Origin: a virus
Length of the DNA stretch: 64,000 bases
Virus record (IMG/VR): IMGVR_UViG_3300027861_000001
Location: 32,001-96,000 of that record
Reading direction: 5' to 3' (one strand)
The translations under genes and the position numbers were made by a program. Under the pieces are notes generated by a model. That model did not search any database. It had not been told where the DNA came from and saw only the letters and a list, made by a program, of their open reading frames with translations. This document shows, one piece after another, positions 3 to 55,681 of the stretch. How positions within the stretch are numbered: the first letter of the stretch is position 1; the number at the start of each line of letters is the position of its first letter.

Positions 3-1229
3 ATTGACCTATGTACAGACGCAGTACCAGAAGAAACTATTAGGTTATTAAAACCATTTGGTTCTGTCTATACTATAGGCAGGAAGTTTGGTACTGTGGG
101 AGTGTTGTTGGCTGATGAAACAAAAGTAGAAGTAACAACCTACAGAACAGAAACCTATAGCAAAGACTCTAGGAAACCAGAAACTGTTTTCGAAAAGAGC
201 TTGATTAAGGATTTATGTAGGAGGGACTTCACCATAAACGCCATAGCACGTGACATAAAAACTGGTGAATTGATTGATCCTCGTAATGGAAAGAGAGACA
301 TAGGAAATAAAATTATAAGATGTACTCAACACAGAGATACGACATTTAGTGACGATCCTCTTAGAATGATGCGTGCTGTGAGGTTTGAGGCACAACTTCC
401 TGGTTTCAGTTTTGTAGAAAAAATAGATAACCCAGAAAGGTTAGAGATTGTGTCAATGGAAAGAATCAGGGAAGAATTAGATAAAATAATGAAAACTGAC
501 GAACCACACAGAGGAATTAGGAGGTTATGTTCTTTAGGGCTTATGAAGTATATAATACCTGAGTTGTTAGAATTGAAAACGATACCCCACGGAAAGCATC
601 ATTTCAAAGACCCATTTGATCATACAATGTTAGTTTTACAAAAAGGGGCTGTTGTTTCAAACGAATTATCATTTAGATATGCTTGTTTATTTCATGATAT
701 TGCTAAACCAGACACCATAAGTATGGATGAAACTGGGGTGCATTTCAATAACCATAACATTGTAGGTGCAGGTAAAGCAAAAACAATCATGAAACGGCTC
801 AGGTTCGACAAAAAGACTATTACAACCGTCAGAACTTTGGTTAACCATCATATGGAACCTTTACACTCACAAAAACTATTAGAAGACGCAACTGATAAGC
901 GTAAAGATTATTTGGTGGGTAGAATGGTGCGTAGGATTGGAAGGGAAAACATATATGACTTAATCAATTTGGTTAGGTGTGATATTCGTTCATCCAAAAA
1001 TCCAAAGCTTGATTTCTTAGATATCTTAGAAGAGGCAGTAAATAATCACTTTATTGTGGTTCCAGTTGTTAAGTCTCCTTTAAGCGGTAATGAAATTATG
1101 GACTATTTAAACATAAAACCTAGCCAAGAGGTTGGTAGATTAAAGAGTATCTTAGTTCAAAAGGTAATTGACGGGGAGCTAGGGTTTGATGATAAGGAAG
1201 CTGCCAAGAAACTTATCAAGGAATTGTGA
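3..1229 (+). CDS. cca: CCA-adding tRNA nucleotidyltransferase with HD domain (5' end outside window)
   Basis: Frame is open from the window start (IDLCTDA). Motifs: EVTTYRTE, DLCRRDFTINAIA, DDPLRMMRAVRF, ERIREEL and HD motif LFHDIAKP. Confidence 0.92.
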   Translation: MDLCTDAVPEETIRLLKPFGSVYTIGRKFGTVGVLLADETKVEVTTYRTETYSKDSRKPETVFEKSLIKDLCRRDFTINAIARDIKTGELIDPRNGKRDIGNKIIRCTQHRDTTFSDDPLRMMRAVRFEAQLPGFSFVEKIDNPERLEIVSMERIREELDKIMKTDEPHRGIRRLCSLGLMKYIIPELLELKTIPHGKHHFKDPFDHTMLVLQKGAVVSNELSFRYACLFHDIAKPDTISMDETGVHFNNHNIVGAGKAKTIMKRLRFDKKTITTVRTLVNHHMEPLHSQKLLEDATDKRKDYLVGRMVRRIGRENIYDLINLVRCDIRSSKNPKLDFLDILEEAVNNHFIVVPVVKSPLSGNEIMDYLNIKPSQEVGRLKSILVQKVIDGELGFDDKEAAKKLIKEL

Positions 1230-1501
1230 TGATAGACAAAGACCTACCAGCGTATGAACACTTCCTTATATGGTCAGAAAAGTATAAAATGGCACTCCAC
1301 TACCGATGTAATACTTGTGGAACAGTTTGTACATACGAATGGGTAGATAACGTTAAGCAAGATAGAACACCATGCCCTGTTTGCAAAGATTCACAGATTC
1401 CAACTTCTTCTCTTTGGGTAACAGCCTGTACTTTAGATGAGGAATTTCCAGTAGATGTTTGTGAGAAATGTGAACTTAGGTTTGTTTGTTGGACAGGATG
1501 A
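1226..1501 (+). CDS. Zn-ribbon protein with C-terminal CxxC-RFxCWT tag
   Basis: Two CxxC pairs; ends CEKCELRFVCWTG*. Confidence 0.75.
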   Translation: MMIDKDLPAYEHFLIWSEKYKMALHYRCNTCGTVCTYEWVDNVKQDRTPCPVCKDSQIPTSSLWVTACTLDEEFPVDVCEKCELRFVCWTG

Positions 1502-1752
1502 TGAAGCATAAAAACAGGTGTATAAGAATCACGCAAATTAAATATAGTACTCCATTTTGCTTGGCTGATGACAATGTCAAGAAGCATTTCTCACACTGCG
1601 TAGGAAGAAAGGGAAAGATAGTTGGTGGGACAGATGATTGGGTAAACATCGAGTTCTTAGACACCGGTGGTAAATTTCACTTTCATCCAGACGAGATTGA
1701 GTTATTTCCTTGTGAAGAATGTGAAAAAAGATTTAAATGCTGGACAACTTAA
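1498..1752 (+). CDS. small SH3/KOW-like protein with C-terminal tag
   Basis: Ends CEECEKRFKCWTT*; start overlaps the previous stop (ATGA). Confidence 0.75.
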   Translation: MMKHKNRCIRITQIKYSTPFCLADDNVKKHFSHCVGRKGKIVGGTDDWVNIEFLDTGGKFHFHPDEIELFPCEECEKRFKCWTT

Positions 1753-2019
1753 ATGAAACAACCTAAAGATGGGCAACGGGTAATTATTACACAGATTAAA
1801 TACGGTTCTGTGGATATTCTTGCCAACGACAGTACAAAAACTAACCATGCTGATTTCGTGGGAAAAGTAGGAATAATACATCGGGAAGCTGGTGATAAAG
1901 ATTGGTATTTGGTACAACTACCGTCTGGAAGTTGGAACCGCTTTCATCCAGAAGAATTTGTGTTATGTACAGAGAAGTGTAATGAGTGCAAAGCTAGATT
2001 TGTTTGTTGGACAGGGTGA
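1753..2019 (+). CDS. small SH3/KOW-like protein with C-terminal tag (paralog of 1498)
   Basis: Shares ITQIKY...G[RK]xG...FHP[DE]E with 1498; ends CNECKARFVCWTG*. Confidence 0.75.
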   Translation: MKQPKDGQRVIITQIKYGSVDILANDSTKTNHADFVGKVGIIHREAGDKDWYLVQLPSGSWNRFHPEEFVLCTEKCNECKARFVCWTG

Positions 2020-2291
2020 TGAAAAAAATAAAGGTGGGAGATAGGGTTAGACTTAAAAAGATACACAAGGGGTATCTTCCAGCCAACCTTGATGTAGAGT
2101 TTGCGTGGGAACGATGTTATATCGTATCTGAGGTATTTTTTAGACCATTAATAGGTTCTAAAACAGGGAACTATGTAACACTTATAAAGTTTAAAAGTTA
2201 CAACACCGGTGCGAGCAAAGCCAATCATTTTTCTCACACTAAAAAGACTTGTGAAAAGTGTAAATATAGATTTAAATGCTGGACTGAATGA
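2019..2291 (+). CDS. small protein with C-terminal tag
   Basis: KIKVGDRVRL N-terminus; ends CEKCKYRFKCWTE*. Confidence 0.75.
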   Translation: MKKIKVGDRVRLKKIHKGYLPANLDVEFAWERCYIVSEVFFRPLIGSKTGNYVTLIKFKSYNTGASKANHFSHTKKTCEKCKYRFKCWTE

Positions 2292-2545
2292 TGAATAGAA
2301 AATTTAAAATTGGAGATTTTTCTACAGTAAATAGAGTCGGATGCTACCCAAATGAGTTGGGGCGTATTGTACGGATTACAAGAAGCTGGAATGACAATAT
2401 TCTATATGAAGTAAAAATATGTGCTAGAGTTAAGAATGGTTTTATTTATGATAAAAAACTACATCCTGCAAGAAGGTTGTGTAAAGTAGACAACCCACCA
2501 AAATGTGAAGAATGTGAAAAAAGATTTAAATGCTGGACTACGTGA
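2288..2545 (+). CDS. small protein with C-terminal tag
   Basis: KFKIGD N-terminus; ends CEECEKRFKCWTT*. Confidence 0.75.
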   Translation: MMNRKFKIGDFSTVNRVGCYPNELGRIVRITRSWNDNILYEVKICARVKNGFIYDKKLHPARRLCKVDNPPKCEECEKRFKCWTT

Positions 2546-2793
2546 TGCTAAAAGAAGGTGATAAAGTATTTATAACAGGTATGGATGATTGGTGTGATTG
2601 TGTAGACTGCGTGGAAACATACTGGCAAGATGTACACAACAAACAAGCAACTGTAGTAATGTCGGTAATAAACGCACCAACTCTTGTCTTTACTACAAGC
2701 GATGGTATTAGATTTAGCATTAAAGACGTAACTTATGACGTTTGTGAGAAATGCGATGAATGCAAACATCGTTTCATATGTTGGACTAGTTGA
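2545..2793 (+). CDS. small protein with C-terminal tag (paralog of 25453)
   Basis: KVFITG..WCDCxxC; ends CDECKHRFICWTS*. Confidence 0.75.
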   Translation: MLKEGDKVFITGMDDWCDCVDCVETYWQDVHNKQATVVMSVINAPTLVFTTSDGIRFSIKDVTYDVCEKCDECKHRFICWTS

Positions 2794-3084
2794 ATGATAA
2801 AAAAAAGAATTAAAAAAGGAAGCTGTGTAATAGTAACACAAATACTGTATGGTTCATATGGAGTAAAAGCGTCTGACAGAATACTCCAAGACTACGCTCA
2901 ATACGTAGGAAAAGTGGCAACAGTTGAGGCATCAGATGTTGAAAAAGATGGTTTTTCAATTAAACATACACTAAAATTCAAATCTTTCGACGAAATAGTA
3001 GGAGGATTTTTTGTAGAGGAGCTTGAGGAGCTGGAAAAACCATGTGAAGAGTGCCCTGCAAGATTTCAATGTTGGACTAGTTAA
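2794..3084 (+). CDS. small protein with C-terminal tag
   Basis: VTQILYGS..VGKVA; ends CEECPARFQCWTS*. Confidence 0.75.
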   Translation: MIKKRIKKGSCVIVTQILYGSYGVKASDRILQDYAQYVGKVATVEASDVEKDGFSIKHTLKFKSFDEIVGGFFVEELEELEKPCEECPARFQCWTS

Positions 3085-3333
3085 ATGTTTTACGAGTTGG
3101 ATGAAATAGTAGATTCACTTGGTAAAACTAAATACTCGTCATGCTTAGTTATAAAGTATTGGTATTCTATAGTAGATTACAAAGAATATGTATTAGTCAA
3201 AAGAGGTTGCGAGGAATGTGAAGAACGTTTTAAATGTTTTACATCGAACACAAACATTCCACCACGAACAACACTAATGTCTAGAAATAGATTTAGTTTA
3301 TATAATACTTGGGTAATAGAAAGGGAGGATTAA
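3085..3333 (+). CDS. small protein with internal tag
   Basis: Internal CEECEERFKCFTS. Confidence 0.7.
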   Translation: MFYELDEIVDSLGKTKYSSCLVIKYWYSIVDYKEYVLVKRGCEECEERFKCFTSNTNIPPRTTLMSRNRFSLYNTWVIERED

Positions 3334-4463: not shown

Positions 4464-5651
4464 GTGGACAATATTCCGGTAATGACTCAGATCATAAAAA
4501 AGTGCATCGAAGTAAAAAGGACGCCCCTGTTGTGGGGTAAACATGGTATTGGTAAATCTGATATCATAAGAGACATTGGAGAACAGTTGGGATTCGATAA
4601 GGTAATTGACTTGCGGCTGGGGCAGTTGGAAGTTGGTGACCTTATTGGGATGCCGGACAGAGAGTATTACTGTCCATCATGTAAAACTTCATTTGGAACA
4701 AAAGGTGATTTAATCTTTTGTCCTGTGTGTGAGGATGAAGGCAGAGGAAAGGTAGCAATCGCAGGCAGAACAATCTTTCTACCTCCAGATTGGTTACCAC
4801 AAAACGGAGAAAAGTATTTACTATTCTTCGACGAATTTAATAGAGGAAGGTTGGATGTTCAGCAGGCAGCTTTCCAAATTGTGTTGGATAGAAAAATCCA
4901 TCGTCACGTAATTCCTGACAATTGTGCAATTATTTGTGCTTGTAATCCTTCTGGTGGAAATTACAATGTTGAGGAATTGGATGAGGCTTTGATCGATAGG
5001 TTCATCAACATTAAGTTTTCTCTGAGGGCTGATGAATGGTTGAAGTGGGCTACTGATCATAATATTAATGAAAATATTGTGGACTTTATTATGACAGACA
5101 ATACCGCCCTCGGTGCTGATCCTATTGAAATTCCTGTTGAAATTAAACCTTCTCCACGCTCTTATGAGTTCCTTAGCAACGTAATTACAGGACTCGACAG
5201 GAACTATTGGTCAGCAACTGCGGCAATGATTGTTGGAGAAACCACCGCTTTACAGTTTATGGCAAGCCTTAAAACAGACCTTGATAAACCTGTTAGAGCA
5301 AAAGACATATTCGACAAATTCAACGATAAGAAAGACCCTTCAAAAGCTACTCCAACAAGAAGGAAAGTTATTGCTCAATGCAGAAAAACAGAAGGACAAA
5401 CAAGGTTTGATTTGCTTGACCAAACTATAAAAGAAATTGTGCGTGACTTGAAAGATGACCAAAGCAAAAAATACAATGAAAGTCAGCTTAACAATCTCGG
5501 CGATTTCCTTTTGTTGATTCCTAAAGACTTGGCATTTACTGCAATAAAAGACCTTTCCTTGATGAACGACGTAAACATGAGACTTCTATTGATTAGAACT
5601 GACCTATTCGACCTCATCAAAGGGGCTAGGGGAACTGACAAAGACGGTTAA
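4464..5651 (+). CDS. MoxR-like AAA+ ATPase with Zn-ribbon insertion
   Basis: Walker A GKHGIGKS, Walker B LLFFDEFNRG, ACNP, LDEALIDRF; CPSC..CPVC insert. Confidence 0.88.
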   Translation: MDNIPVMTQIIKKCIEVKRTPLLWGKHGIGKSDIIRDIGEQLGFDKVIDLRLGQLEVGDLIGMPDREYYCPSCKTSFGTKGDLIFCPVCEDEGRGKVAIAGRTIFLPPDWLPQNGEKYLLFFDEFNRGRLDVQQAAFQIVLDRKIHRHVIPDNCAIICACNPSGGNYNVEELDEALIDRFINIKFSLRADEWLKWATDHNINENIVDFIMTDNTALGADPIEIPVEIKPSPRSYEFLSNVITGLDRNYWSATAAMIVGETTALQFMASLKTDLDKPVRAKDIFDKFNDKKDPSKATPTRRKVIAQCRKTEGQTRFDLLDQTIKEIVRDLKDDQSKKYNESQLNNLGDFLLLIPKDLAFTAIKDLSLMNDVNMRLLLIRTDLFDLIKGARGTDKDG

Positions 5652-5662: not shown

Positions 5663-5703
5663 AAGCTGGTGGTGTGTGTTAGCGAGGCATGCGCCACCAG
5701 CTT
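5663..5703 (+). other. long intergenic RNA hairpin between the MoxR and VWA genes
   Basis: AAGCTGGTGGTGTGTG pairs with CATGCGCCACCAGCTT (about 16-18 bp including GU); no U-tail. Confidence 0.65.
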
Positions 5704-5724
5704 ATCAATAAAGGAGAGAGAATA

Positions 5725-7269
5725 ATGGCAGAGAAAAAACAAGACACAAGCTATCTTGATAAGGTAGATGTTACTTCTCCAATTATAACTGATGCTTGCA
5801 TTGACCAAGAAATTATTCAGTTAGTATTGCTACATAAGTATTTTTATTCACACTTTTTACAGCAGTTTAGACGGCACATCATTAAAAAAGGTGACCCGTT
5901 GTGGGATAAAGTACCAACACTTGGTGTAAACATCACAGATGATTTACGTCCAAATTTATTTGTAAATGAGGCTTGGTATGGTAGTTTAACACCAGATGAG
6001 AAGCTAGCCGTGCTAGAGCATGAGGTTCTTCACATACTAAATAAACACTTAATAAGAAAAGAAGGCAGAGAACCTTATCTGTGGAATCTTGCTAGCGATG
6101 TTGCTATTAATCAATACATAAAAGGATTACCAAACGAGGGGCTTTGCCCTGATTGTAATATACTAGTCAGGCGCACAAGTGACGGTAAGTTACCAACACG
6201 TTGTAATGTATGTAACAGAGAGCTTGACCCTAAAAAAGATAAATGGGAAGCACTAGACTATCAAACTTTCAAGTTACTAAAAGATAAGAAATTACCTAAA
6301 GAAGAACCAACAGAATGTTATTATGACCTTATGAATGAAAACTTACCAAAAGAAACTATCCAACTTGGCATAAAAATGACTAAGGAAAAAACAAAAGGAT
6401 GTAAGGAGTGTGGTGGGTTTGGTAACTCAAACGATCCGCAACCAAGCGAAGAGCCACAAGACGGTGAGGGAAGTGGAGGACAGGGTGAAGAAGAATCCGA
6501 TAAGCACGGTTGTGGGCAGTTAGAAATAGATGGCGTAAAAGTTCCTATGACTATGGACCCACATGAAATTTGGGAAACTGGTTCTGATAATCAGGAAATG
6601 GCTCATGAAAAGATTAAAGAAATGGTTAGGTCTGCTCTTGATGAATCAAACCAAAGACAACAAGGGCATCTTCCAGACTTCTTAAGAGGTTTGATTGATT
6701 CGTGTATTGCTCATAAGATTCTTAACTGGAAATCAGAACTTCGTAGGTTCGTTGGTTATGAGGAATTTGCGAAGATGGAATCTACCAGAAAGAAAACCAA
6801 CAGACGATATGGTGTGTATCAGCCTGGAACTAGGGTAGTAAGGAAAGCACACATTGCTGTAATTGTAGATAGTTCTGGTTCTGTTTCTAATGACGAATTT
6901 GCTAAATTCTTTAAAGAAATAGAGTTTATGAAGAAGGCTGGTGTTGGTATCACTATTATTGAATGTGATGCTGATGTCCAATCTGTTTATGAGTATAAGA
7001 AACGACCAACTATCGAAAGAATTGGATATGGTGGCACAGACTTTAGACCACCTTTCAAGTTACTTGTTGATAAGAAGTATACACAAGGAAGGCATGGAAA
7101 CAACAAAACGTTTGAACTAAGAAAAAGTGTTGACTGCATCATTTACTTGACAGACGGTTATGGTAGTTTTCCTACGTTTGTTCCAAAACCTACTATTTGG
7201 GTTATGACTCCTAACTACCAAGACCCAAAGAATCCAGCTCTTGGTAAGGTTATAGTAATGAAAGACTAA
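5725..7269 (+). CDS. DUF2201-like metallopeptidase/VWA protein (MoxR partner)
   Basis: HEVLH, WNLASDVAINQ, C-terminal VWA with DSSGS, GGTDF and YLTDG. Confidence 0.88.
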   Translation: MAEKKQDTSYLDKVDVTSPIITDACIDQEIIQLVLLHKYFYSHFLQQFRRHIIKKGDPLWDKVPTLGVNITDDLRPNLFVNEAWYGSLTPDEKLAVLEHEVLHILNKHLIRKEGREPYLWNLASDVAINQYIKGLPNEGLCPDCNILVRRTSDGKLPTRCNVCNRELDPKKDKWEALDYQTFKLLKDKKLPKEEPTECYYDLMNENLPKETIQLGIKMTKEKTKGCKECGGFGNSNDPQPSEEPQDGEGSGGQGEEESDKHGCGQLEIDGVKVPMTMDPHEIWETGSDNQEMAHEKIKEMVRSALDESNQRQQGHLPDFLRGLIDSCIAHKILNWKSELRRFVGYEEFAKMESTRKKTNRRYGVYQPGTRVVRKAHIAVIVDSSGSVSNDEFAKFFKEIEFMKKAGVGITIIECDADVQSVYEYKKRPTIERIGYGGTDFRPPFKLLVDKKYTQGRHGNNKTFELRKSVDCIIYLTDGYGSFPTFVPKPTIWVMTPNYQDPKNPALGKVIVMKD

Positions 7270-7565
7270 TGAAAATCTTTAAAGTAAAAACATTTGGTAG
7301 TGGTATATCTATTAGGTGTAGTGCCGAAGATTGTGGTAATTGCAACATTAGGTTTAGGTGTTGGACAACTAACTACTTGGACTATACCGAAGCATATTAC
7401 TACTTTGAAATTGATAAATCTAGGCTACCGGCTGAGGATTGGGCAGTAAAAAAATTGAACCTTGGAAATAAATATGACACAAGAGGTTATTTCGCAGTAG
7501 TAAAAATACTTGAACTGTATTTGTTTGGTAGGGTAGTAAACAAATTCAAATCTGTGAGTAGTTAA
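7269..7565 (+). CDS. small protein with N-proximal tag
   Basis: CGNCNIRFRCWTT. Confidence 0.7.
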   Translation: MKIFKVKTFGSGISIRCSAEDCGNCNIRFRCWTTNYLDYTEAYYYFEIDKSRLPAEDWAVKKLNLGNKYDTRGYFAVVKILELYLFGRVVNKFKSVSS

Positions 7566-7567
7566 GT

Positions 7568-7996
7568 ATGGGAAAATCTATACCAATTCGAAAAGAATGC
7601 TTAGATAATAAGTTTATGTGTAATAGTTGTTCTGTGAGATACCTTTGTTACACAAACAGCTTACCTAGTAGAAAGTGCAGTGACTTAGAATATGCTTTTG
7701 ACTATAACAACACACCTTTTGAGTATGAAGATATTCTAGCTATTTGGGCAGCTGTTTATGGAGCAAATGACGGTTCCGACTGGTTTTGGGTAGTACAATT
7801 ATCTGGAAATAAATATTCATTAGTACGTGGTGGTTGTGACTATACAGGTTGGGACTGACAGAGTTGGGTTAGTTGCGAGTTCGCAACATCAACAGAAGAG
7901 GCAGCTAAGTTGTCACCTATTAAAGACGACGGCAGACCTATACAAGACACTTTGTTGAAACAAATAAAAGGTGAAATTCCTTATGGGACTGTTTAA
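7568..7996 (+). CDS. candidate selenoprotein (in-frame UGA at 7856-7858), also carries the tag
   Basis: Frame stays open for 45 codons after TGA to a TAA that overlaps the next ATG (TAATG). A hairpin follows the UGA. CNSCSVRYLCYTN near the N-terminus. Confidence 0.65.
7863..7893 (+). promoter_or_regulatory. SECIS-like hairpin
   Basis: Inner stem GTTGCG/CGCAAC with AGTT loop about 20 nt after UGA; outer stem GTTGG/TCAAC. Confidence 0.55.
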
Positions 7997-8223
7997 TGGA
8001 ATTACCAAAAATAGGTACTAGACTTATAGTGGTAAGCAACGAAGGAAGATGGTTGCCTAAAGGTGAGGTTGTAATATTTGATGGTACGTCTTACTCAGGT
8101 AACTGGATGATTATTACACCAGATGGTAGACGTTCGGGTGGGTGGTTGCCAGGAAGATTTAAAGTATGCCCAGCTAATACCTGTGATACATGTAAACAAC
8201 GATATAGGTGTTGGACTACTTAG
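7996..8223 (+). CDS. small SH3-like protein with C-terminal tag
   Basis: Ends CDTCKQRYRCWTT*. Confidence 0.75.
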   Translation: MELPKIGTRLIVVSNEGRWLPKGEVVIFDGTSYSGNWMIITPDGRRSGGWLPGRFKVCPANTCDTCKQRYRCWTT

Positions 8224-8958
8224 GAGGAAAACACTATGGATTTAAATGATATTTCAACAGAAGAATTAGAAGAAGAAGTCGAGAAAAGAAAGCGAGATGC
8301 CATACCAAAACCATTAAGTGTGATAGGTCTAACCGCTTTGACACGAATATGTAACGAATATATCAATGGATTAGCAGGTGGTTACCAAATTAAAGACGGT
8401 GAACATTACATCTTTGAAACAGCAATAGAAGCTGTATACGGTAAAGATGTGTGGGATTGGGTTAATTCACAAGACTGTATGTTGTAGGAAAATAAAAATG
8501 AAAAAGATAATAAACCTAATTAAAAACCTGTTAAACAGTAAACCAAAACAATCAAAGTATAATAACGTAGAAAAGAACGTGATGGATACGATAAAAGAAT
8601 ATGATAAAGGGCATCGTTAGTATGAGTAAAACACACGTAAAAGCATTTTTTAAGTTGTTTCTGGGTGTAGTAATAGTTCAATTACTGCTGGCACTGCTTT
8701 TTGTACCGTTCTGGAATATGTCTGTAGCTGAAACATTTACCTTTGCTAACAGTATAGAATATATTCAGGCACTTGGTGCGCTAGGAATATTTTGGTGCTT
8801 TTTACTTGTTACTCTAGTAATTAAATCGTTCGTAAGTTTGGTAACAGGTGCTATTGCTACTGTTCACATTACTAAAGCGTGGGAAACTGCCAAAGAAGAA
8901 GCTAGAAAAAAGATGGAAGAAAATATGGAAAAACTGGGCAAACATTTCCCTGATGATA

Positions 8959-9315
8959 ATGATGAATAAAAACGGATCGGGGTTAGGCGTGGAAAGTAAG
9001 TTTTTATGTTGTTACACTGAAGGAAACCCTTTGGAACTTGAATTTAAGTTTATTATAAAATTAGTTTACCGTGGTGTTTTCCAAAAGTATATACTTTACA
9101 AACGTGAAAACTTTCTTAATTACTTTGGTGATAAACGAAATCCATTCGAAAAAGATACGTACACGCATTTAGATTTAATGTACGAAAAGTTTTATATGGC
9201 AGGTTATACAGTAGATAAAAATTGTGATGATTGTAACTACAGGTTCTTCTGTTTTACTGATGAACCTATTTCGATAACTATCGACGCATCAGGGAAAAAT
9301 TGGATACTTTTATGA
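8959..9315 (+). CDS. protein with internal tag
   Basis: CDDCNYRFFCFTD; start position uncertain. Confidence 0.65.
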   Translation: MMNKNGSGLGVESKFLCCYTEGNPLELEFKFIIKLVYRGVFQKYILYKRENFLNYFGDKRNPFEKDTYTHLDLMYEKFYMAGYTVDKNCDDCNYRFFCFTDEPISITIDASGKNWILL

Positions 9316-9662
9316 AAAAGAAGTATTATCCTATAGTAACATTTCCAAGTAAATCCAGTAGTAAGGTTTATACTGTCTCAATGGATAATGATGGAGGATT
9401 AAGTTGTGATTGTCCTGCTTGGGTATTTAAAAAAGCTGGAGAAAGAATTTGTAGGCATATAAAAGAAGTCACAGCACAAGGTTTTGGTACAGTAGAAGGA
9501 AAGTTTGTTGTGTTAGTAGATTCATTGTCAAACAAAGAACCTATCTTCTGTAAAAAATATCCAAGGCAGTGTGATACTTGTAGTTTAAGATTTCCATGTT
9601 ATACAGCTAATACACCTGAGTTTTCTATTAAAGAATTGAGAAAAGAAGGTATTGTTAAGTGA
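9312..9662 (+). CDS. SWIM zinc-finger protein with tag
   Basis: SCDCPAW..CRH SWIM motif; CDTCSLRFPCYTA. Confidence 0.75.
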   Translation: MKKKYYPIVTFPSKSSSKVYTVSMDNDGGLSCDCPAWVFKKAGERICRHIKEVTAQGFGTVEGKFVVLVDSLSNKEPIFCKKYPRQCDTCSLRFPCYTANTPEFSIKELRKEGIVK

Positions 9663-9982
9663 ATTGGAATGATCAAACAAAGGAACAAAAACGGTATGCG
9701 TTAAATAAATTAGCGGCTGATGGTTCTGCTTTAGAACGAGGATATAAAGTTTGTATAGTAAACCAATCTGACCTTTCACATGAAGATTATACACACAAAA
9801 TATTTTGTGTAACTGGTTTTCGACCCATAAACGAGTCTTTATGCACAGATGATTCACTGGTTGTAGAATTACAAAGCGAAAAAATGGGAGGACTTAGTTG
9901 TTACGCTTGGCGTCTTCACATTATGGAAGATGAAGAAAGTTGTAATAATTGTCCAGCTAGGTTTAAATGTTGGACAGGATAA
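9659..9982 (+). CDS. small protein with C-terminal tag
   Basis: Ends CNNCPARFKCWTG*. Confidence 0.75.
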   Translation: MNWNDQTKEQKRYALNKLAADGSALERGYKVCIVNQSDLSHEDYTHKIFCVTGFRPINESLCTDDSLVVELQSEKMGGLSCYAWRLHIMEDEESCNNCPARFKCWTG

Positions 9983-16953: not shown

Positions 16954-17244
16954 AATGCACGAAATATATACTCTTACTACTATCAGAAATAAAGCTTGGG
17001 ACACTGACACACGATGTGTTGGATGGTTCCCAAACTACGAAGATGCCGAATCAACAATAATTAGGTCTGGTGAACTATTGAATGAAGCTGGTTATTATGA
17101 ATATGCTGTCATAGAATGTATTAAGGCAGGTATCTACCAATACGACGATAACCCAGCTTGGTTTGCTTATAACTATAACCTTGAAACTTATGGAAAAATA
17201 GAAAGACCAGAAGACTTTGAACATGTTTGCGGGTTTGGAATAGG

Positions 17245-17520
17245 ATGAAAAACCATAAAGTGCTGTGTACCTACACTAAGGATGGTAGTTATTACTACAT
17301 GCTCTGGGATGAGGACGAACGTCGATTAAAGAAGTATTCACACGATAGGTATCCTTTGGATATGGTTGATAGTCTATTCAACAACACTCTTTATTATACG
17401 TATAGCCAACTAGAGTATATGAATATTCGTTACACAGAATGGATAAACGGTGGAGAAGATTTAGAACCAGAAAATTGTGACGCTTGTAAGTATAGATTCA
17501 TATGTTGGACTGAGGAATGA
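17245..17520 (+). CDS. small protein with C-terminal tag
   Basis: Ends CDACKYRFICWTEE*. Confidence 0.75.
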   Translation: MKNHKVLCTYTKDGSYYYMLWDEDERRLKKYSHDRYPLDMVDSLFNNTLYYTYSQLEYMNIRYTEWINGGEDLEPENCDACKYRFICWTEE

Positions 17521-17837
17521 GGGTATTAAACCAAACTAAATATTCAAGGTTCGTATGTTACTACGACGACTGTAATAGTTGTAAAATAAGATATAAGTGT
17601 TGGACTGGGGATATCACCGCATACGGCACCCTATATTACAAAATAAAAATAGAAGCATATGCTTTCTTTAGAGAAAAGTACGGTGCTGAAATAGACGACT
17701 ATGCTATTAGCGAAGCTTTTGAAGGTAAAAAAAGTAACCTTTTGAGCTTTTTTATTACAGGAGACCTTGATAGTACTGTTATTGCTTGTGAAGTGTTTCA
17801 CAGCAAAGAATGGAAAAGTTTTAGAGAAGGAGAATAA
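17517..17837 (+). CDS. small protein with N-proximal tag
   Basis: CNSCKIRYKCWTG. Confidence 0.7.
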   Translation: MRVLNQTKYSRFVCYYDDCNSCKIRYKCWTGDITAYGTLYYKIKIEAYAFFREKYGAEIDDYAISEAFEGKKSNLLSFFITGDLDSTVIACEVFHSKEWKSFREGE

Positions 17838-18098: not shown

Positions 18099-18398
18099 AT
18101 GTATAGAAAGATTGATAGAATACCTCCCAAAACATTTCCAAAAGACGATTGTGATACATGCTTAATTCGTTTTAAATGTCATTCTTCTGCTGTAGATGAA
18201 GCTGGTTGTCGATTATCAGCAGAAGAGGCAGCAGATAGAATCTTCAAAACTATAGATGAAAATGGTGCTTACTGGAATAATATTGTCTCAAGTATTTTGA
18301 GAGTAGTAGCTGAAGATTGTGGGTATGATGTTGCTAATCATGTAATAGATTTATGTGGATTAGAAAGTTTGGGTTGGTGTCATGAAAGTGGATTGTAG
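18099..18398 (+). CDS. small protein with N-proximal tag variant
   Basis: CDTCLIRFKCHSS. Confidence 0.7.
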   Translation: MYRKIDRIPPKTFPKDDCDTCLIRFKCHSSAVDEAGCRLSAEEAADRIFKTIDENGAYWNNIVSSILRVVAEDCGYDVANHVIDLCGLESLGWCHESGL

Positions 18399-18672
18399 TG
18401 TAAAACTTAATGCTAATTATCCAGTTGAGTATACTGTAGATGGAGATGAATTGCTTCCTAGTGATACGAAAATTATTGAGCAAAGCGCAGGTAAAGTGTA
18501 CAAAATATTAAATATAAAAGAGGATAATCCAGACGAGCAGTTTGGAATAATCTACGAGGTTGGACAACTTAATGAAATTCCCGTAGTTTTCGCATACAGA
18601 CTAGAAATAGACCCAGCCTATATGAACGTATGCAACATTTGTGAAGAAAGGTTTAAATGTTTCTGTGAATAA
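18382..18672 (+). CDS. small protein with C-terminal tag variant
   Basis: Ends CNICEERFKCFCE*. Confidence 0.7.
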   Translation: MKVDCSVKLNANYPVEYTVDGDELLPSDTKIIEQSAGKVYKILNIKEDNPDEQFGIIYEVGQLNEIPVVFAYRLEIDPAYMNVCNICEERFKCFCE

Positions 18673-21053: not shown

Positions 21054-21277
21054 AAAAAGAGTTTAACGTTGGTGACAAGGTTTGTATGTTCCCTAACGAA
21101 ATGTCAGCTGCTGGTAAAAAGGTAGGAGTAGGTGTAGTAATAGACACTAAGTCATACCGAGCCGATTACCCATACGAAGTAAGAGGTACTGGTTTTGTTT
21201 GGTCATCAGAAGAATTAAACCTTTGTTTAGGAAATTGTGATACTTGCAAAGCTAGATTTGTTTGTTGGACGAGCTAA
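21050..21277 (+). CDS. small SH3-like protein with C-terminal tag
   Basis: FNVGDKV N-terminus; ends CDTCKARFVCWTS*. Confidence 0.75.
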   Translation: MKKEFNVGDKVCMFPNEMSAAGKKVGVGVVIDTKSYRADYPYEVRGTGFVWSSEELNLCLGNCDTCKARFVCWTS

Positions 21278-21366
21278 ATGAAAAAGAAAAAATCAGTAAA
21301 AGATATAAAAAAGCAAAAGAAAACAAGAACCAAACGAAGAAGAAAGAATCGGTTAGGTGGAAAACG

Positions 21367-21681
21367 ATGACAGACGAAACCATTGCTGAGAAAACTAGAA
21401 TACTTACGTGTCAACTGGAATACAAAAATACTAAGTATTCTAAACCTTGTTTAACATGTAATGATAGGTTCAAATGCCATACAATGGTTGCGAAAGAGTT
21501 TGTAATGACAGAAATGTACTCAGGGTGGAAAGATCATTATATTGTAGCAGAAACTAAAGAAGAAGCACAGAACTGGTTCGATAAATTAGGATTTGAGTTG
21601 TTTGAAGAATATGGTGAATATAATCGTTTGGGTGACGAGTACGGTGAAAATACAGAGTGGAAAGAAATAGATTATAGATAA
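21367..21681 (+). CDS. small protein with internal tag variant
   Basis: CLTCNDRFKCHTM. Confidence 0.65.
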   Translation: MTDETIAEKTRILTCQLEYKNTKYSKPCLTCNDRFKCHTMVAKEFVMTEMYSGWKDHYIVAETKEEAQNWFDKLGFELFEEYGEYNRLGDEYGENTEWKEIDYR

Positions 21682-25134: not shown

Positions 25135-25135
25135 T

Positions 25136-33579: not shown

Positions 33580-33580
33580 G

Positions 33581-37618: not shown

Positions 37619-37846
37619 CTAAACATAATCCCACGATTTAGTCCAACACTCAAATCTTTCTTTACAAAAGTTACATTTCCTATCGTCTACTAACCTTCTT
37701 CTACACTGCCTAAAGTAAGCATCATTACCAAAAATTTGTGCTTTCATTTCTTCCCACATTTCTAATGTGAGTGCATCATCTGTTGGGCCTAGCTTTTCCC
37801 CATACACCTTTTCAAAGATTTCTTTGGTTACTACTTCTCTATCCAT
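37619..37846 (-). CDS. small protein with near-terminal tag
   Basis: CNFCKERFECWTK. Confidence 0.7.
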   Translation of the reverse strand: MDREVVTKEIFEKVYGEKLGPTDDALTLEMWEEMKAQIFGNDAYFRQCRRRLVDDRKCNFCKERFECWTKSWDYV

Positions 37847-38780: not shown

Positions 38781-38938
38781 TTAATTTCTGAAACATTAAG
38801 TAATTCTATTCCGACTATACCACCGTCTTCATCAATATCTATTATAATGTCTTCAGTTATCTCTGTAGTCCTAGCTATTTCTTTGTCCGATACATAGACA
38901 TAAGCCGCTTCTGCTAATTTATCATATACTATTTTCAT
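38771..38938 (-). CDS. DUF2283-like protein
   Basis: MKIVYD..AAYVYV..DIDEDGGIVGIELLNVS. Confidence 0.8.
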   Translation of the reverse strand: MKIVYDKLAEAAYVYVSDKEIARTTEITEDIIIDIDEDGGIVGIELLNVSEIKDS

Positions 38939-39165
38939 TCTTTTGTCCAACATTTGAATCTAAGTTCACATTTACTACATTTGGTTTCATCTCGTTCTTT
39001 GTATTTACTACAATAAAAAGGACAACGAGACTGATTAGTGGAATAAATGTTTTTATCTAGCTCATAACAATACCCCAACCAGCGTGATATATACGACGAA
39101 ATTTTTCTAGGTGCTGGGTCTAGTTTTCTACAATCACCACATTGATTCCATATTTTTTCAACCAT
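38935..39165 (-). CDS. small protein with C-terminal tag; starts directly after tRNA-Lys
   Basis: Ends CSKCELRFKCWTKE*. Confidence 0.72.
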   Translation of the reverse strand: MVEKIWNQCGDCRKLDPAPRKISSYISRWLGYCYELDKNIYSTNQSRCPFYCSKYKERDETKCSKCELRFKCWTKE

Positions 39166-39249: not shown

Positions 39250-39405
39250 TTATTTAGTCCAGCATTTGAATCTTTTTATACAAGTATCGCAACCATTAAG
39301 ATTACTGTCAAGAATTGTACGACAAATACTTATAAAGCGGTCATCCATTTCTGCTTTTTGTTTATAATACAAAGCTAAATACTGAAGTTTTTCTTCTTTA
39401 GTCAT
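39250..39405 (-). CDS. 51-aa protein with C-terminal tag (below ORF-track cutoff)
   Basis: GAGG SD; MTKEEK...CDTCIKRFKCWTK*. Confidence 0.72.
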   Translation of the reverse strand: MTKEEKLQYLALYYKQKAEMDDRFISICRTILDSNLNGCDTCIKRFKCWTK

Positions 39406-41429: not shown

Positions 41430-41746
41430 ATGAACTTCCTCACTTTGTTAAAGTTTATTTGCACTTTCTTGTTTCGGCTTGTATCCTCCCTGATACTCAC
41501 CTTAATAGTTGGTGTTAAGTAATTCGCAACTATTTCTGCACTTAAGTTATTACCGTTTTTCAAATTTAAATCTTTGAGATTTATAACCAGTGCTTCATCG
41601 CTAGTAAAACATTCGTAACGATGAGTACAATCGCTACAAACTTCTTCAGCATTTTTAGCTCCATGACAGTAAAATTCTTTTCTCCAGTTGTCAGTACGAC
41701 TAGTGTCTTTTACGAGGATTGTTTTCAATTTCTCCCTTCCTTTCAT
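41426..41746 (-). CDS. small protein with internal tag
   Basis: CSDCTHRYECFTS. Confidence 0.7.
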   Translation of the reverse strand: MKGREKLKTILVKDTSRTDNWRKEFYCHGAKNAEEVCSDCTHRYECFTSDEALVINLKDLNLKNGNNLSAEIVANYLTPTIKVSIREDTSRNKKVQINFNKVRKFI

Positions 41747-41984
41747 GACAATCTAATATTGTACCTGTATAACATGTAAAACGATTAGGACACACTTCAC
41801 AACTTTCTATTCTAAGTAAACTTTCAGAAGGATAAGTTAGAGTAGTGCGATATGAGTTTAAAGGATAAACATAATAATTGTTATAATTTTTTTCTCCGAT
41901 TATAAGCCCCATATCCCCAGCGTGTGAGCTTTGATACCCATGTGTATCTATAATCATTACTACATCATTCTTTTTTAATTCCAT
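41700..41984 (-). CDS. SH3-like protein with tag
   Basis: LKKNDVVMII N-terminus; CEVCPNRFTCYTG. Confidence 0.7.
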   Translation of the reverse strand: MELKKNDVVMIIDTHGYQSSHAGDMGLIIGEKNYNNYYVYPLNSYRTTLTYPSESLLRIESCEVCPNRFTCYTGTILDCHERKGEIENNPRKRH

Positions 41985-42502: not shown

Positions 42503-42754
42503 TTAAACCCCTGATGTTATGCACTTAAACCTGTGTTCGCAAAAACCGCATTTAGGATATGTACCAGCTGGTTGTTTGTATCTTTCTCTATGAATAACAC
42601 ACAAGATTCGCATCTTATTACGACAATTAGTACAATGCACTAATACTGCGTAACCGCTGGTATCTCTACAAAACCTATTTCTAGTAATTATGTTGCAATT
42701 TAAACATTGAAACAACGCACTATCATACGACCAATTAAATTCGTTATATTTCAT
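42503..42754 (-). CDS. Cys-rich protein with tag variant
   Basis: CGFCEHRFKCITS. Confidence 0.7.
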   Translation of the reverse strand: MKYNEFNWSYDSALFQCLNCNIITRNRFCRDTSGYAVLVHCTNCRNKMRILCVIHRERYKQPAGTYPKCGFCEHRFKCITSGV

Positions 42755-47552: not shown

Positions 47553-47894
47553 TCATTTCCACTCTGTTGTCCAACACTTATATCGTTCGTCACAATAATC
47601 ACACTTTTTTGTATTTTTAGTTCTTTTTCTACAATCAGAAAAAAACATATCATCTTCAACTGGAGCAGCTAGATCACTACCTATAAACATAATTTGCTCC
47701 ATAGACACTGTTGAAGGACAACCATTTGCACAGATAGAAAGCCCACTACCAGCACTAACGTTAATAGTAGTACCATTACCACGATTAGCTGAATAAAGAT
47801 AATCGTCTGTTTTCCGCATTCTATAACTTTCCTTGAGGTCCACTAAACTCTTTTTTCTTTCTACGTGTTTTAGGTTTTTCCATGTATCCATCAT
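47553..47894 (-). CDS. protein with near-terminal tag
   Basis: CDYCDERYKCWTTEWK*. Confidence 0.7.
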   Translation of the reverse strand: MMDTWKNLKHVERKKSLVDLKESYRMRKTDDYLYSANRGNGTTINVSAGSGLSICANGCPSTVSMEQIMFIGSDLAAPVEDDMFFSDCRKRTKNTKKCDYCDERYKCWTTEWK

Positions 47895-50537: not shown

Positions 50538-51281
50538 TTATCGCATCCACGGCTCTAGTTTCCTCGTCTTATCTAAGCAATGTTCTAAGAAGAAGCAGCG
50601 AGAACAGTCTCTTCCAAGGTGTCTAACATATACACCCGACCTCATTTTTTTCTCTAGCTTATCTAGCTCACCAGCCAGCATTTCAAAATCTTTCTCTGTC
50701 CTAGTAGTAACTAAATCCTTCATAGTTCCTAAGTGCCTAAGAATCAGACTACTTTCTGGTTCACCAAACAATTTACGATACGCATAACTATACATAGTAA
50801 ATTGTAAATCAAAGTCTAGTTGAAGTTGTGTAGGTTTCACACCAGTTTTATAATCTATTACTCTTTTTCTATCATCTATTTGGTCTATAACACCGATAAG
50901 TGTATGATTACCTATTGGTAATCCACCACCTGAAAAACCAAAGCGATACTCAAGCTCTTTTGGTGCTTTTATGCCTTTTACAAAGTTATCATAGTATGTA
51001 CCAAGCATTTCTTGACCTTTATCCAACTTTTTTATATACTCATTATTAACTGTATAACTGATGTTGGCTTGTGCATTAGCAGTAATCCACTCAGTCTTAA
51101 ACAGCTTTATCCAAGCATCTCTTGGTAAGTCATTAACATAACCTAAATGAATTGCTTTATGAACAGCTGTACCAAAAACAGATGCGGCTGTTTCTTGTAG
51201 TTGAACTTTCTTTATGTATCGCAAGTAGTATTGATACTCGCAAGCCATAAAACTATTCACCATTGTATACGAAAACCTCAT
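50538..51281 (-). CDS. PD-(D/E)XK RecB/Cas4-like exonuclease
   Basis: GTAVH, GVIDQID, IDYKTG, QFTMY, C-terminal CSRC..C. Confidence 0.88.
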   Translation of the reverse strand: MRFSYTMVNSFMACEYQYYLRYIKKVQLQETAASVFGTAVHKAIHLGYVNDLPRDAWIKLFKTEWITANAQANISYTVNNEYIKKLDKGQEMLGTYYDNFVKGIKAPKELEYRFGFSGGGLPIGNHTLIGVIDQIDDRKRVIDYKTGVKPTQLQLDFDLQFTMYSYAYRKLFGEPESSLILRHLGTMKDLVTTRTEKDFEMLAGELDKLEKKMRSGVYVRHLGRDCSRCFFLEHCLDKTRKLEPWMR

Positions 51282-53386: not shown

Positions 53387-53405
53387 TTATTACCGTCTCC
53401 AATCA

Positions 53406-55340
53406 TTATTTTGGTATTAAATATAACTGTTGCCTATCTGTATTATCTTCGGGGTGGTTTTCTCCACCCCACGCATCTTTAATTTCCAAATCCACTAATA
53501 TAGGAACTTGTTTAAGGAATTTCCTTGCACCTTCAATCATGGTATCATTAACAATGCGAGCCGCTATTATTGCATTTTCTTCAGGAACCTCAACGCACAC
53601 CTCATCATGAATTGTGTTTACAAGTCTACCACCAATTTTTTGTAGTGGATAGAACATTAGAATAATGGCTGTTTTCGTCATGTCAGCACTTGTACCTTGA
53701 ATTGGATGATTTTTTCCAACTCTTATATAATAATTTTCCAACCTTCTACGCTCTTTAAAGTCAATGTCCCTTTTACTAAGGTCTGGAAACCACCTACAAC
53801 GCCCACCAACAGTTCTAGTTAATCCTTTCTCTAAAGCCTTATTACCTGCGTTAGTTAAGTACTCAATCAGAACACTGTAAGTATTTTTATATCTTTCCAA
53901 ATGTTCAGCAGCCACACTTAAACTACAACCTATTCTTTCGGACAAGGTTTTAACTTCCATTCCATAAATGATTCCAAAGTTCAAAGTTTTTGCTGCCCTA
54001 CGAAGATCATCATCAACGTCCTCAGTATCATACATGTCTCTGGCTGTTGACCAATGCAAGTCTTCACCTTTAGCAAGAGCAGCTAGCATTAATGGATCAC
54101 CACTCAACTCAGCGGCTAATCTAAGCTCTATTTGAGAATAGTCAGCCACAATAAACTTACAACCTTTCTCTGGAACAAAACACGCTCTCAAGATTTTTCC
54201 GTCTTTTCCCTTCTTCTTTATATTCTGAAGATTTGGGTCTGAGCTGCTAAGTCTACCACTATCTGTCCCAGTTTGATGAAATCTGGCGTGTATCCTCCCA
54301 TCTTTAGCAATGTGCCCAAGCAAGCTCTCTCCGAATGTCTTTTCAACCTGCTTAACTTCCCTATAATCAACCAAGCTTTTTATAATTTGTTTCTTTTTAT
54401 CGTCATCACACATAGATATAGCATAAAGCAAAGTAGCGTTATTGGTCAATCCTTTTCTAGTTACTTTATTAGCTCTATTTAAGTCAATTCCTACCGCATC
54501 AAATGCTTCATTTACTTGTTGCCAACTATCTAGATTAAGAACTGGTGGTGGTTTAGGAACAGCGTTATTTTTGTACGGTGTTCCATCCTTCTTTATCCTC
54601 ACAGGTTTTGGTGGAGGTGGTAATGGAGCAGGAAGCTCATCACGTAAGAACCGACTCAAATTAAACACTCTCTCATTAATTTGTACTAATGTTTTTCTCC
54701 ACTTAACAGCATCAAGCTTTATACCAGCAATCTCCATATGAGCAATAGGTTCTATTAACCTAAACTCTAGGTTCGATATGGCAGTCATCTTAAACTCTTT
54801 TATATACCTTTGCTGATTCTTCATGATATCAATTAGATACCAAACATCCAGCGCGGAATACTCTAACTGCTCGTCAGTAAAAACACCATTCTCGTGGTCG
54901 AAGTCAACAAACGTTTGCCTTACCTGCTTATCAAGAGTAACATCACAATACTTCTTAACTAGCTGTAATAAGTTTGTGCGAACATTGTACATACCAGCAT
55001 GTAGTAATTTCTCAGCAATTTGTGTATCATATATTCCCTTTACTGATATGCCAGCTTTAACATATAACATTTTGTAATCAAAATTTGCATTTTGAATAAT
55101 TTTAGTATATGCTCTATCTTCTAACACTTCCTTAAGTGGGGATAAATCAACCTTCCTTGCATCAATTACGTATGCCACATCACCAACCAACAACTGAACA
55201 AGCAACAGTTTAACGTTATCATCTAAATAATCTAGTCCAGTAGTTTCTGTATCTAGAGGAATAAATTGTTGTTTCTTTGCTTCTTCAACTATATTAGGAA
55301 CGTCTTCTTGTTTAATAATATATTTGTATATTAAGTCCAT
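53406..55340 (-). CDS. polA: DNA polymerase family A with 3'-5' exonuclease
   Basis: DTETTGL, GRLSSSDPNLQN, DYSQIELR, AKTLNFGIIYG, IQGTSAD, HDE. Confidence 0.96.
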   Translation of the reverse strand: MDLIYKYIIKQEDVPNIVEEAKKQQFIPLDTETTGLDYLDDNVKLLLVQLLVGDVAYVIDARKVDLSPLKEVLEDRAYTKIIQNANFDYKMLYVKAGISVKGIYDTQIAEKLLHAGMYNVRTNLLQLVKKYCDVTLDKQVRQTFVDFDHENGVFTDEQLEYSALDVWYLIDIMKNQQRYIKEFKMTAISNLEFRLIEPIAHMEIAGIKLDAVKWRKTLVQINERVFNLSRFLRDELPAPLPPPPKPVRIKKDGTPYKNNAVPKPPPVLNLDSWQQVNEAFDAVGIDLNRANKVTRKGLTNNATLLYAISMCDDDKKKQIIKSLVDYREVKQVEKTFGESLLGHIAKDGRIHARFHQTGTDSGRLSSSDPNLQNIKKKGKDGKILRACFVPEKGCKFIVADYSQIELRLAAELSGDPLMLAALAKGEDLHWSTARDMYDTEDVDDDLRRAAKTLNFGIIYGMEVKTLSERIGCSLSVAAEHLERYKNTYSVLIEYLTNAGNKALEKGLTRTVGGRCRWFPDLSKRDIDFKERRRLENYYIRVGKNHPIQGTSADMTKTAIILMFYPLQKIGGRLVNTIHDEVCVEVPEENAIIAARIVNDTMIEGARKFLKQVPILVDLEIKDAWGGENHPEDNTDRQQLYLIPK

Positions 55341-55681
55341 TAAAGTGTCCCATCAGCACTAGTATATGTATAAGGCCCAGTTGTTGTTATAGTTGTCGTA
55401 TCGTAAGTAGGGTTGCTTGTTGTAGCCCAAGAACTCCCACCGTCCGAATACGTATACGGAATATTCCAAGCAGGTGTACTAGGATTAAGATTATCTTTTA
55501 GATGTTCTACTATTTGAATCAATGCAGCTTCTCTGCCTAACCCTTGTGCCATAAGAGCCTCAAACATTCCTTGAAGATTGTCATCTGAGAATATCTTCTC
55601 TTGCGTAAAACATTGAAATCTTTGATCACAAGTCTCACACAAACATTTTTTGGTTCCAGCTTTACTTTTGTGGTTTATCAT
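55340..55681 (-). CDS. protein with N-proximal tag
   Basis: CETCDQRFQCFTQ. Confidence 0.68.
   Translation of the reverse strand: MINHKSKAGTKKCLCETCDQRFQCFTQEKIFSDDNLQGMFEALMAQGLGREAALIQIVEHLKDNLNPSTPAWNIPYTYSDGGSSWATTSNPTYDTTTITTTGPYTYTSADGTL

Follow-up and report, generated by a model that had tools for sequence, protein, structure and literature searches.

The window analysed here, a 64-kb stretch of a viral genome, contains 41 called ORFs that share a 12-residue tag, C-x2-C-x2-[RK]-[FY]-x-C-hydrophobic-T; 27 lie on the plus strand and 14 on the minus strand (Table 1). This recount agrees exactly with the 41 tagged ORFs, on both strands, of an earlier sequence-only reading, whose strict pattern fits 39 of them. 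It also bears out a run of eight consecutive tagged genes (1226-3333), two short tagged ORFs of 48 and 51 aa, and the estimate of about 20 copies at the extreme C terminus, since 20 of the 41 tags lie no more than 2 residues from the stop. Variant ends were seen in two neighbouring carriers (C-H-S in 18099-18398 and C-F-C in 18382-18672). The position of the tag is free, being N-terminal, internal or C-terminal, and the largest carrier family in the window is KOW/SH3.

Table 1. Tag carriers and other genes discussed in the text, with the position of each tag.
Coordinates	Strand	Tag	Description
1226..1501	+	1460 (first Cys), terminal	carrier, Zn-ribbon body
1498..1752	+	1711, terminal	carrier, SH3-like; extra Cys in strands 1 and 2
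1753..2019	+	1978, terminal	carrier, SH3-like; fourth Cys 4 residues upstream
2019..2291	+	2250, terminal	carrier, SH3-like; single extra Cys in strand 2
2288..2545	+	2504, terminal	carrier, SH3-like
2545..2793	+	2752, terminal	carrier, SH3-like
2794..3084	+	3043, terminal	carrier, KOW/SH3 fold (modelled); single extra Cys11 in strand 1
3085..3333	+	3208, internal	carrier
4464..5651	+		MoxR-like AAA+ ATPase (family name from sequence and context); clade core gene, carriers on flanks; candidate reader
5689..7269	+		DUF2201 metallopeptidase and VWA-like protein; clade core gene; candidate reader
7269..7565	+	7332, N-proximal	carrier
7568..7996	+	7619, N-terminal add-on	carrier, UGA protein
7996..8223	+	8182, terminal	carrier, SH3-like
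8956..9315	+	9223, near C terminus	carrier
9300..9662	+	9570	carrier, SWIM finger; tag kept in 7/7 orthologues
9659..9982	+	9941, terminal	carrier, SH3-like
17227..17520	+	17476, terminal	carrier
17517..17837	+	17571, N-proximal	carrier
18099..18398	+	18150, N-proximal, variant	carrier; extra Cys downstream
18382..18672	+	18631, terminal, variant	carrier
19598..20446	+	20219, internal	carrier, 282 aa
20406..21053	+		uracil-DNA glycosylase (UDG), untagged in this genome
21050..21277	+	21236, terminal	carrier, SH3-like
21262..21681	+	21448, internal	carrier
22313..22573	+	22532, terminal	carrier, SH3-like
23350..23853	+	23521, internal	carrier, Cys-rich
23968..24402	+	24310	carrier, conserved body then tag
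24293..24622	+	24509, internal	carrier
25118..25453	+	25412, terminal	carrier, SH3-like
25453..25704	+	25663, terminal	carrier, SH3-like
29712..29978	-	29945, N-proximal	carrier; extra Cys downstream
30368..30709	-	30409, terminal	carrier, Cys-rich
30645..30929	-	30710	carrier, SH3-like; single extra Cys in strand 1
33340..33663	-	33396, near C terminus	carrier
34044..34190	-	34085, terminal	carrier, 48 aa
35653..35880	-	35694, terminal	carrier, Zn-ribbon body
37619..37846	-	37675, near C terminus	carrier
38935..39165	-	38979, terminal	carrier
39250..39405	-	39291, terminal	carrier, 51 aa
41426..41746	-	41638, internal	carrier
41700..41984	-	41801	carrier, SH3-like; sole extra Cys downstream
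42503..42754	-	42550, near C terminus	carrier, Zn-ribbon-like
47553..47894	-	47603, near C terminus	carrier
50538..51281	-		PD-(D/E)XK nuclease; iron-staple layout Cys14 + Cys226/229/235, without the R-F...T residues
55340..55681	-	55639, C-x-C start	core carrier adjoining DNA polymerase; tagged in 7/7 orthologues

The complete 149-kb genome has 293 called ORFs, of which 67, roughly a fifth, carry the tag. Enrichment over shuffled ORFs, a check proposed in the sequence-only reading, was pronounced: shuffling residues inside the ORFs of the whole genome gave a mean of 0.028 tagged ORFs (maximum 1), and a six-frame null gave 0.065. When the tag was masked, the 67 carriers sorted into 61 body clusters, in keeping with the unrelated bodies described earlier. 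Six genomes of a clade of uncultured phages hold 30 to 67 copies each, for a clade total of ∼355 copies on 218 unrelated bodies, while no tag was found in six sister phages or on any virion gene. As the earlier reading had supposed, no described family appears to account for the tag; no Pfam, NCBIfam or PHROG profile matched more than 2 of 71 tag segments, which are only 22-30 aa long, and ten scanned carriers gave no Pfam hit, including no PDDEXK hit. There were weak PHROG WhiB matches. We conclude that the tag is a portable motif, that it is confined to one phage clade, where it sits on accessory genes, and that it marks that clade.

The three tag Cys are accompanied by a fourth. None of 343 carriers lacked a further Cys, against 76-85 expected, and with one protein per body cluster the count was 0/212 versus 36/216 (p = 6e-12). 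The same held for metagenomic carriers, 239 of 241 of which have a fourth Cys, and for 40 of the 41 carriers from a profile search, a partly overlapping set. The numbers of extra Cys peak at 1 and 5, giving totals of 4 and 8. Together, the x2 and x5 spacing of the tag and a fourth Cys in the same chain make up the layout C...Cx2Cx5C, which upholds the Cas4/AddB-type spacing recognized earlier. In fresh add-on tags the fourth Cys lies 3-13 residues upstream. Among SH3 paralogues (n = 25) its sites, on neighbouring strands, are alternatives that exclude one another (p = 3e-5, for classes set after the alignment had been inspected and paralogues that are not independent): 13 have it where strand 5 ends, 12 have it in strands 1/2 and 1 has it at both, with strands assigned from a KOW/SH3 model (pLDDT 82.6). 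In both predicted models, confidence is lowest at the tag (pLDDT 53-68). We conclude that an in-chain fourth Cys is obligate; because each of the 343 carriers has a further Cys and the SH3 sites alternate, the site is closed in cis, contrary to the open fourth ligand of the sequence-only reading.

This layout equals that of characterized [4Fe-4S] sites. The AddB/Dna2 iron staple is a [4Fe-4S] site built from a distal Cys and Cx2Cx5C, with a structural role in AddB (PMC3439918). Tag carriers have the same layout as these and Cas4-like nucleases but no PD-(D/E)XK domain in the ten scanned, and carriers are short (median ∼93-119 aa), the phage nuclease being a separate gene; the staple occurs once per genome whereas the tag occurs 30-67 times, and the distal Cys of the tag is free in position, even downstream. 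Wbl proteins are small, carry a CxnCx2Cx5C [4Fe-4S] site, bind one partner (sigma domain 4) in a cluster-dependent manner and are sensitive to O2 and NO (PMC7363131). Of the known systems compared, they give the most useful working model of docking through a cluster-gated face, although the tag has neither the following G[VI]WGG motif nor a shared four-helix body, its bodies being unrelated folds. FNR combines Cys20/23/29, at the spacing of the tag, with a remote Cys122 around an O2-labile cluster whose loss disorders a sensory loop (PMC4672761), and FeoC has a [4Fe-4S] site of equal Cys layout (PMC8749426). Carriers differ from FNR in lacking CRP-type sensor and HTH domains, for which they are too short and of which the ten scanned gave no Pfam hit, and FNR and FeoC are single regulators whereas the tag is a module on dozens of proteins. 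SPASM domains join a radical SAM domain, which tag carriers lack; the phage's own radical SAM/SPASM gene (13570-14589) is separate from the carriers and untagged. By these precedents, the cofactor of the tag is probably a [4Fe-4S] cluster, and the Fe-S or redox role suggested earlier is plausible by analogy.

The sequence-only reading found the core enzymes untagged, which is true of this window; among relatives, however, 4 of 7 UDG orthologues carry a truncated four-Cys tag as a C-terminal extension, so the statement that no recognizable enzyme is tagged holds for the window only. The tag of the UGA protein is absent from other members of its family, and the add-on tags on UDG, leader proteins and the UGA protein carry their own fourth Cys. 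Judging from its Cys layout, the phage nuclease is likely kin of the tag motif, and nucleases of unrelated marine phages have the exact motif together with a distal Cys62. Among clade genomes, [RK][FY] is kept in 355 of 395 Cx2Cx5C sites, and R7, F8 and T12 in ∼90% of sites. Conservation of R-F and T beyond the needs of the phage's own nuclease staple hints at a shared reader, making docking on one putative partner possible, or these residues could merely pack the mini-fold.

The best candidate for such a reader is the MoxR ATPase and metallopeptidase-VWA pair. The pair is present in 6/6 near-complete tag genomes, adjoins carriers in 7/7 and was not found in six tagless sister phages. Because ∼20 other genes have the same clade-restricted pattern and the sister phages are divergent, this co-occurrence does not single out MoxR/VWA. 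Genetic evidence connects RavA-ViaA, a MoxR-VWA chaperone, with Fe-S assembly (PMC3893208). The clade similarly encodes a MoxR-like ATPase and a VWA partner, among carriers, but the phage partner is a DUF2201 protein that also has a metallopeptidase domain; MoxR-VWA pairs such as RavA-ViaA are not known to recognize a client tag, and binding to the tag is putative here.

Terminal copies have a further property. Trp is enriched in them (46/65 versus 48/278), and the terminal Trp codon puts a GGA 7-11 nt upstream of the following ATG, the same spacing as in untagged coupled genes. The terminal W-T codons appear to double as the Shine-Dalgarno site of the next gene, which would hold these copies at W-T-x-stop. 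The earlier proposal that selection acts on the peptide therefore stands in part: synonymous codons in the tag mirror genome-wide use, but Trp enrichment and GGA placement indicate selection that is not purely at the peptide level.

We propose that the portable unit is a four-Cys metal site with three ligands in the tag and the fourth from the same chain, which lies upstream in fresh add-ons or has moved to an adjacent strand within the carrier. The folded site would present a helix face of R7, F8, the hydrophobic residue 11 and T12 to one common reader, for which the MoxR/VWA pair may serve, and dozens of accessory proteins would be matured, switched or degraded together by iron or oxygen status. 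We lean narrowly towards such a face and joint control, and hold the whole explanation (four-Cys site, common reader and dual-use terminal codons) tentatively, at somewhat less than an even chance. Its furthest extension, a virus-wide cofactor-gated layer in which one fifth of the phage's proteins bear an oxygen- or iron-sensitive [4Fe-4S] module, MoxR-VWA/peptidase loads, recognizes or destroys these carriers and redox state switches the accessory proteome, is conceivable but on the unlikely side.

The alternative that survives best, though we think it rather unlikely, is a local metal staple (Fe-S or Zn) without a reader, which would stabilize each protein or make it oxygen-labile and would have spread by gene-end recombination. 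The in-chain fourth Cys, the staple geometry, the structural precedent of AddB, and the occurrence of tandem paralogues and of short DNA repeats at tags all agree with this. However, the ∼90% retention of R7, F8 and T12 has no counterpart in the same phages' nuclease staple, SH3 barrels and UDG also exist untagged, and retention on 218 unrelated bodies is much to ask of stability alone. It is improbable that the tag instead binds zinc through four Cys and acts as an address label directing its carriers into the capsid or a phage compartment. The T4 capsid targeting sequence is indeed one short signal on diverse, fast-evolving small internal proteins (PMC3012670), cargo much like the carriers; the capsid protein is highly conserved within the clade, and sequence matches among solved structures are confined to zinc knuckles (C2H2/GATA), which align with the first half of the motif. 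The T4 signal, however, is fixed at the N terminus, has no metal ligands and marks a few genes per genome, whereas the tag is position-free, Cys4 and on one fifth of all genes; its copy number varies from 30 to 67, and the published examples found of Cx2Cx5C with a distal Cys are Fe-S sites. A C2H2 or GATA finger itself was rejected, as the matches end at Phe and the second ligand pair is absent at finger spacing; no His enrichment was seen downstream of the tag.

A collective iron-sulfur sink or decoy, draining or occupying host Fe-S supply or sensors irrespective of carrier, would suit the very high copy number and complete four-Cys sites, yet one abundant protein would do without grafts on enzymes such as UDG, and we consider it very improbable. 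A three-Cys site completed by a partner or second subunit has in its favour that only three Cys are positionally fixed and that two of the 241 metagenomic carriers have three Cys only, one of the two coming from an unrelated element; it is largely refuted by the obligate, migrating fourth Cys and is scarcely credible. Equally hard to credit is a DNA- or RNA-level cassette (mobile repeat or translation-coupling signal) with an incidental peptide, since the terminal Trp and GGA effects that favour it explain only two codons, 80% of copies are non-terminal, codon use matches the genome and the fourth-Cys rule operates at the protein level.

The ligand chemistry of the tag is known; its genome-wide portable use is new within the family libraries and literature searched. 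If the proposed explanation is correct, this would be the first virus in which a cofactor site labels unrelated proteins by the dozen; infection would then be gated by redox state or iron, and the Fe-S supply of the host would be drawn on heavily. As a natural experiment, the migrating fourth Cys can show how metal sites are grafted onto new folds, and the self-contained Cys4 module of ∼20 residues is a potential protein-engineering part. The UGA protein has, in addition to its tag, an in-frame TGA at 7856-7858 that aligns to an invariant Cys.

The sequence-only reading had counted about 41 tag-bearing proteins (carriers), about 20 of them tagged at the extreme C terminus, and both counts were borne out: C-x2-C-x2-[RK]-[FYW]-x-C occurs in exactly 41 called ORFs of the window, with 20/41 at the extreme C terminus. 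Across the complete phage record (149,053 bp), of which the window covers bases 32001-96000, 67 of 293 called ORFs are tagged, compared with a mean of 0.03 when residues were shuffled inside ORFs, confirming enrichment. Tags are absent from the virion and glycan module (96-137 kb of the genome), and none of this genome's replication enzymes is tagged. Synonymous codons in the tag match genome-wide usage. We rejected both chance and a mobile DNA repeat as explanations for the copies. We also rejected the tag as a SPASM or radical SAM substrate; the radical SAM gene is missing from the clade core clusters.

In related records, pattern scans turned up many copies of this same tag. Across eleven fully read contigs there are 355 tags (30-67 in each near-complete genome), with the consensus C-[DEN]-x-C-x-x-R-F-x-C-[YFW]-T, and the carrier bodies, with the tag masked, fall into 218 clusters, including 155 singletons. 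Capsid identity is 65-78% within these tagged phages, and the sister group stands apart at about 50%; no tag occurs in six fully read sister genomes (77-97 kb), whose Cx2Cx5C sites are essentially just the single nuclease staple. A metagenome scan yielded 118 loci, of which 58 have at least two tags, and 57 of those 58 also have clade-homologous genes. Searching 1.84 billion representatives with a profile returned 41 small tagged proteins plus eight zinc-finger or repeat matches. The GTDB scan, whose one codon pattern detects only a subset of tag copies, gave 67 single matches; true tag genes lay on two contigs of one MAG only, both clade phage DNA, and the rest were chance. Tagged clade contigs L198 and L211 sit in a Rhodobacteraceae MAG (35-39% GC), probably by misbinning. 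Of 71 tag segments, each just 22-30 aa long, at most 2 matched any single Pfam, NCBIfam or PHROG family. An Atlas search gave no feature match to the tag; its weak structural match to a Cas4/PD-(D/E)XK cluster, over 29 residues (TM 0.53), is a lead only. We found no cultured relative, the top capsid match being 24-26% to Bacillus phages. The deep-branching partial genome G014 (L316-L320; capsid 65%), whose accessory region is mostly missing, contains two degenerate tags (81490-81868) over 90 kb. A 72-aa protein of an unrelated element (L404:5354-5572, L377:3073-3291) has the motif at its start, in single copy and with just three Cys, and some proteins (P0127, P0128) have two tags and three further Cys.

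Carriers differ in how firmly they hold the tag. The core carrier beside the DNA polymerase, for which a homologue search returned only itself, is present and tagged in 7/7 genomes, as is the SWIM protein. Four of seven orthologues of the uracil-DNA glycosylase (UDG) have a tag extension of roughly 30 residues, and the other three stop short of the tag. The UDG of the window ends in Q-x-x-L-[LF], which we take to resemble a sliding-clamp motif; in four relatives the extension follows it. In the UGA-containing protein the tag is an N-terminal add-on missing in five homologues. An N-terminal leader of 16 residues is common to seven tandem genes upstream of a radical SAM/SPASM gene; leader genes number 0-10 in relatives, and a few leader-family proteins are also tagged, at the C terminus.

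Coordinates of features in the window
Feature	Position	Strand	Remark
tRNA genes / CCA-adding enzyme	96-1229	+	
SH3-like carrier	2794-3084	+	modeled
Two unannotated genes	3334-4184	+	113 and 169 aa
MoxR-like	4464-5651	+	AAA+ ATPase
VWA	5689-7269	+	DUF2201 metallopeptidase-VWA
UGA-containing protein	7568-7996	+	in-frame TGA at 7856-7858
Leader genes and radical SAM/SPASM gene	10822-14589	+	
UDG	20406-21053	+	
tRNA genes / CCA-adding enzyme	25833-49004	-	
bS21	44508-44750	-	ribosomal protein
Core carrier	55340-55681	-	
Primase-like gene	59985-62021	-	678 aa

The sequence-only reading held that the tag leaves a fourth metal ligand open. All 343 carriers have more than three Cys, where untagged small proteins would predict 76-85 with three alone; an upstream Cys is missing from just 30 (134-145 expected), and every one of these has a downstream Cys. 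Taking one protein per body cluster, the fourth Cys is lacking in 0/212 versus 36/216 (p = 6e-12), and 239 of 241 metagenomic carriers keep the rule. The number of extra Cys shows peaks at 1 and 5, giving totals of 4 and 8. Of 25 SH3-like paralogues, 13 have their extra Cys 3-8 residues upstream of the tag and 12 have it in strands 1/2, with both occurring once (p = 3e-5, for site classes set post hoc). One such carrier was modeled (pLDDT 82.6) as a KOW/SH3 barrel, with NusG as top match (Z 8.5, rmsd 1.7, 56 aligned). Strands 2 and 5 both pair with strand 1 in this fold, which places the alternative Cys sites beside the tag. These patterns indicate that the fourth ligand is supplied in cis, by the carrier's own chain, and the in-chain Cys with its alternative SH3 sites refutes the open-ligand reading.

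A distal Cys plus Cx2Cx5C ligates [4Fe-4S] in AddB and Dna2 (PMC3439918), and the same arrangement binds [4Fe-4S] in Wbl proteins (PMC7363131), FNR (PMC4672761) and FeoC (PMC8749426). By this analogy, the tag probably carries Fe-S. Counting against Fe-S, the tag's sole PDB sequence matches are zinc knuckles, which span the motif's first half; zinc is the less likely occupant. Fold and PDB sequence searches returned no Wbl or FNR entries, which leaves room for a local likeness. The exact motif also occurs, together with Cys62, in unrelated marine phage proteins that are about 285 aa long and match PD-(D/E)XK weakly, and the nuclease encoded by the clade itself has Cys14 with Cys226/229/235; descent from such a nuclease tail would be the tag's likeliest origin.

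Beyond the cysteines, clade proteins contain 395 Cx2Cx5C sites, of which 355 show [RK][FY] at positions 7-8 and 352 show T/S at position 12; neither feature occurs in the nuclease staple. In the poor model of the core carrier (pLDDT 50.7; only generic helical fold matches, best Z 5.1), a helix begins at the R/F...T residues, and R7, F8, residue 11 and T12 would share one helix face. Such conservation is consistent with a face recognized by a single partner, as when Wbl proteins bind sigma, or it could reflect packing. As to a shared partner, the MoxR and VWA genes are present in 6/6 near-complete tag genomes, lie among carriers in 7/7, and were not found in the six sister genomes. RavA-ViaA has been linked to Fe-S assembly (PMC3893208). 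About 20 other genes have the same clade-restricted distribution, so the MoxR-VWA pair is a candidate reader only. Two unannotated genes lie upstream of the pair in 7/7 genomes; the sister phages yielded neither.

Terminal copies favor Trp at position 11 (46/65 versus 48/278 elsewhere, p = 2e-16), a count raised in this genome by tandem duplication; the figures are 13/28 versus 42/250 without this genome and 9/32 versus 27/209 at metagenomic loci. The Trp codon and the one after it yield GGA beginning 7-11 nt upstream of the abutting ATG, and untagged coupled genes have GGA in the same zone in 86/192 cases versus 28/192 in background. GGA at ribosome-binding spacing probably accounts for the fixed W-T-x-stop ending.

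The tag would work like an iron staple of the AddB/Dna2 kind, and possibly like the Wbl docking face, but it lacks the defining features of AddB/Cas4, Wbl, FNR, SPASM and C2H2 and those of the T4 capsid targeting signal (PMC3012670). Our literature searches found no system of this kind. The ligand chemistry is already known; the metal, partner and host of the genome-wide portable tag are inferred.

The in-frame TGA of the UGA-containing protein aligns with an invariant Cys in 5/5 homologues, the reading frame is conserved for 45 codons past it, and a 6-bp hairpin lies about 14 nt 3' (z -2.5 for 51 nt), making this a candidate phage selenoprotein. The TGA may also be a nonsense mutation; assembly error was rejected, since the source run (same sample) agrees. 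The clade core gene bS21 scored 42-45 bits against the best Chloroflexota and 29-35 in five other genomes, with uneven sampling, and leans weakly to Chloroflexota as host. The 23 tRNA genes, interspersed with ORFs, are accompanied by a CCA-adding enzyme; relatives have 26-37. The primase-like product is twice the length of those in relatives (about 330 aa), apparently by intein insertion. In L119, a large glycan-biosynthesis block lies within the head operon (about 121-133 kb of the genome, beyond the window), as it also does in relatives L164 and L235.
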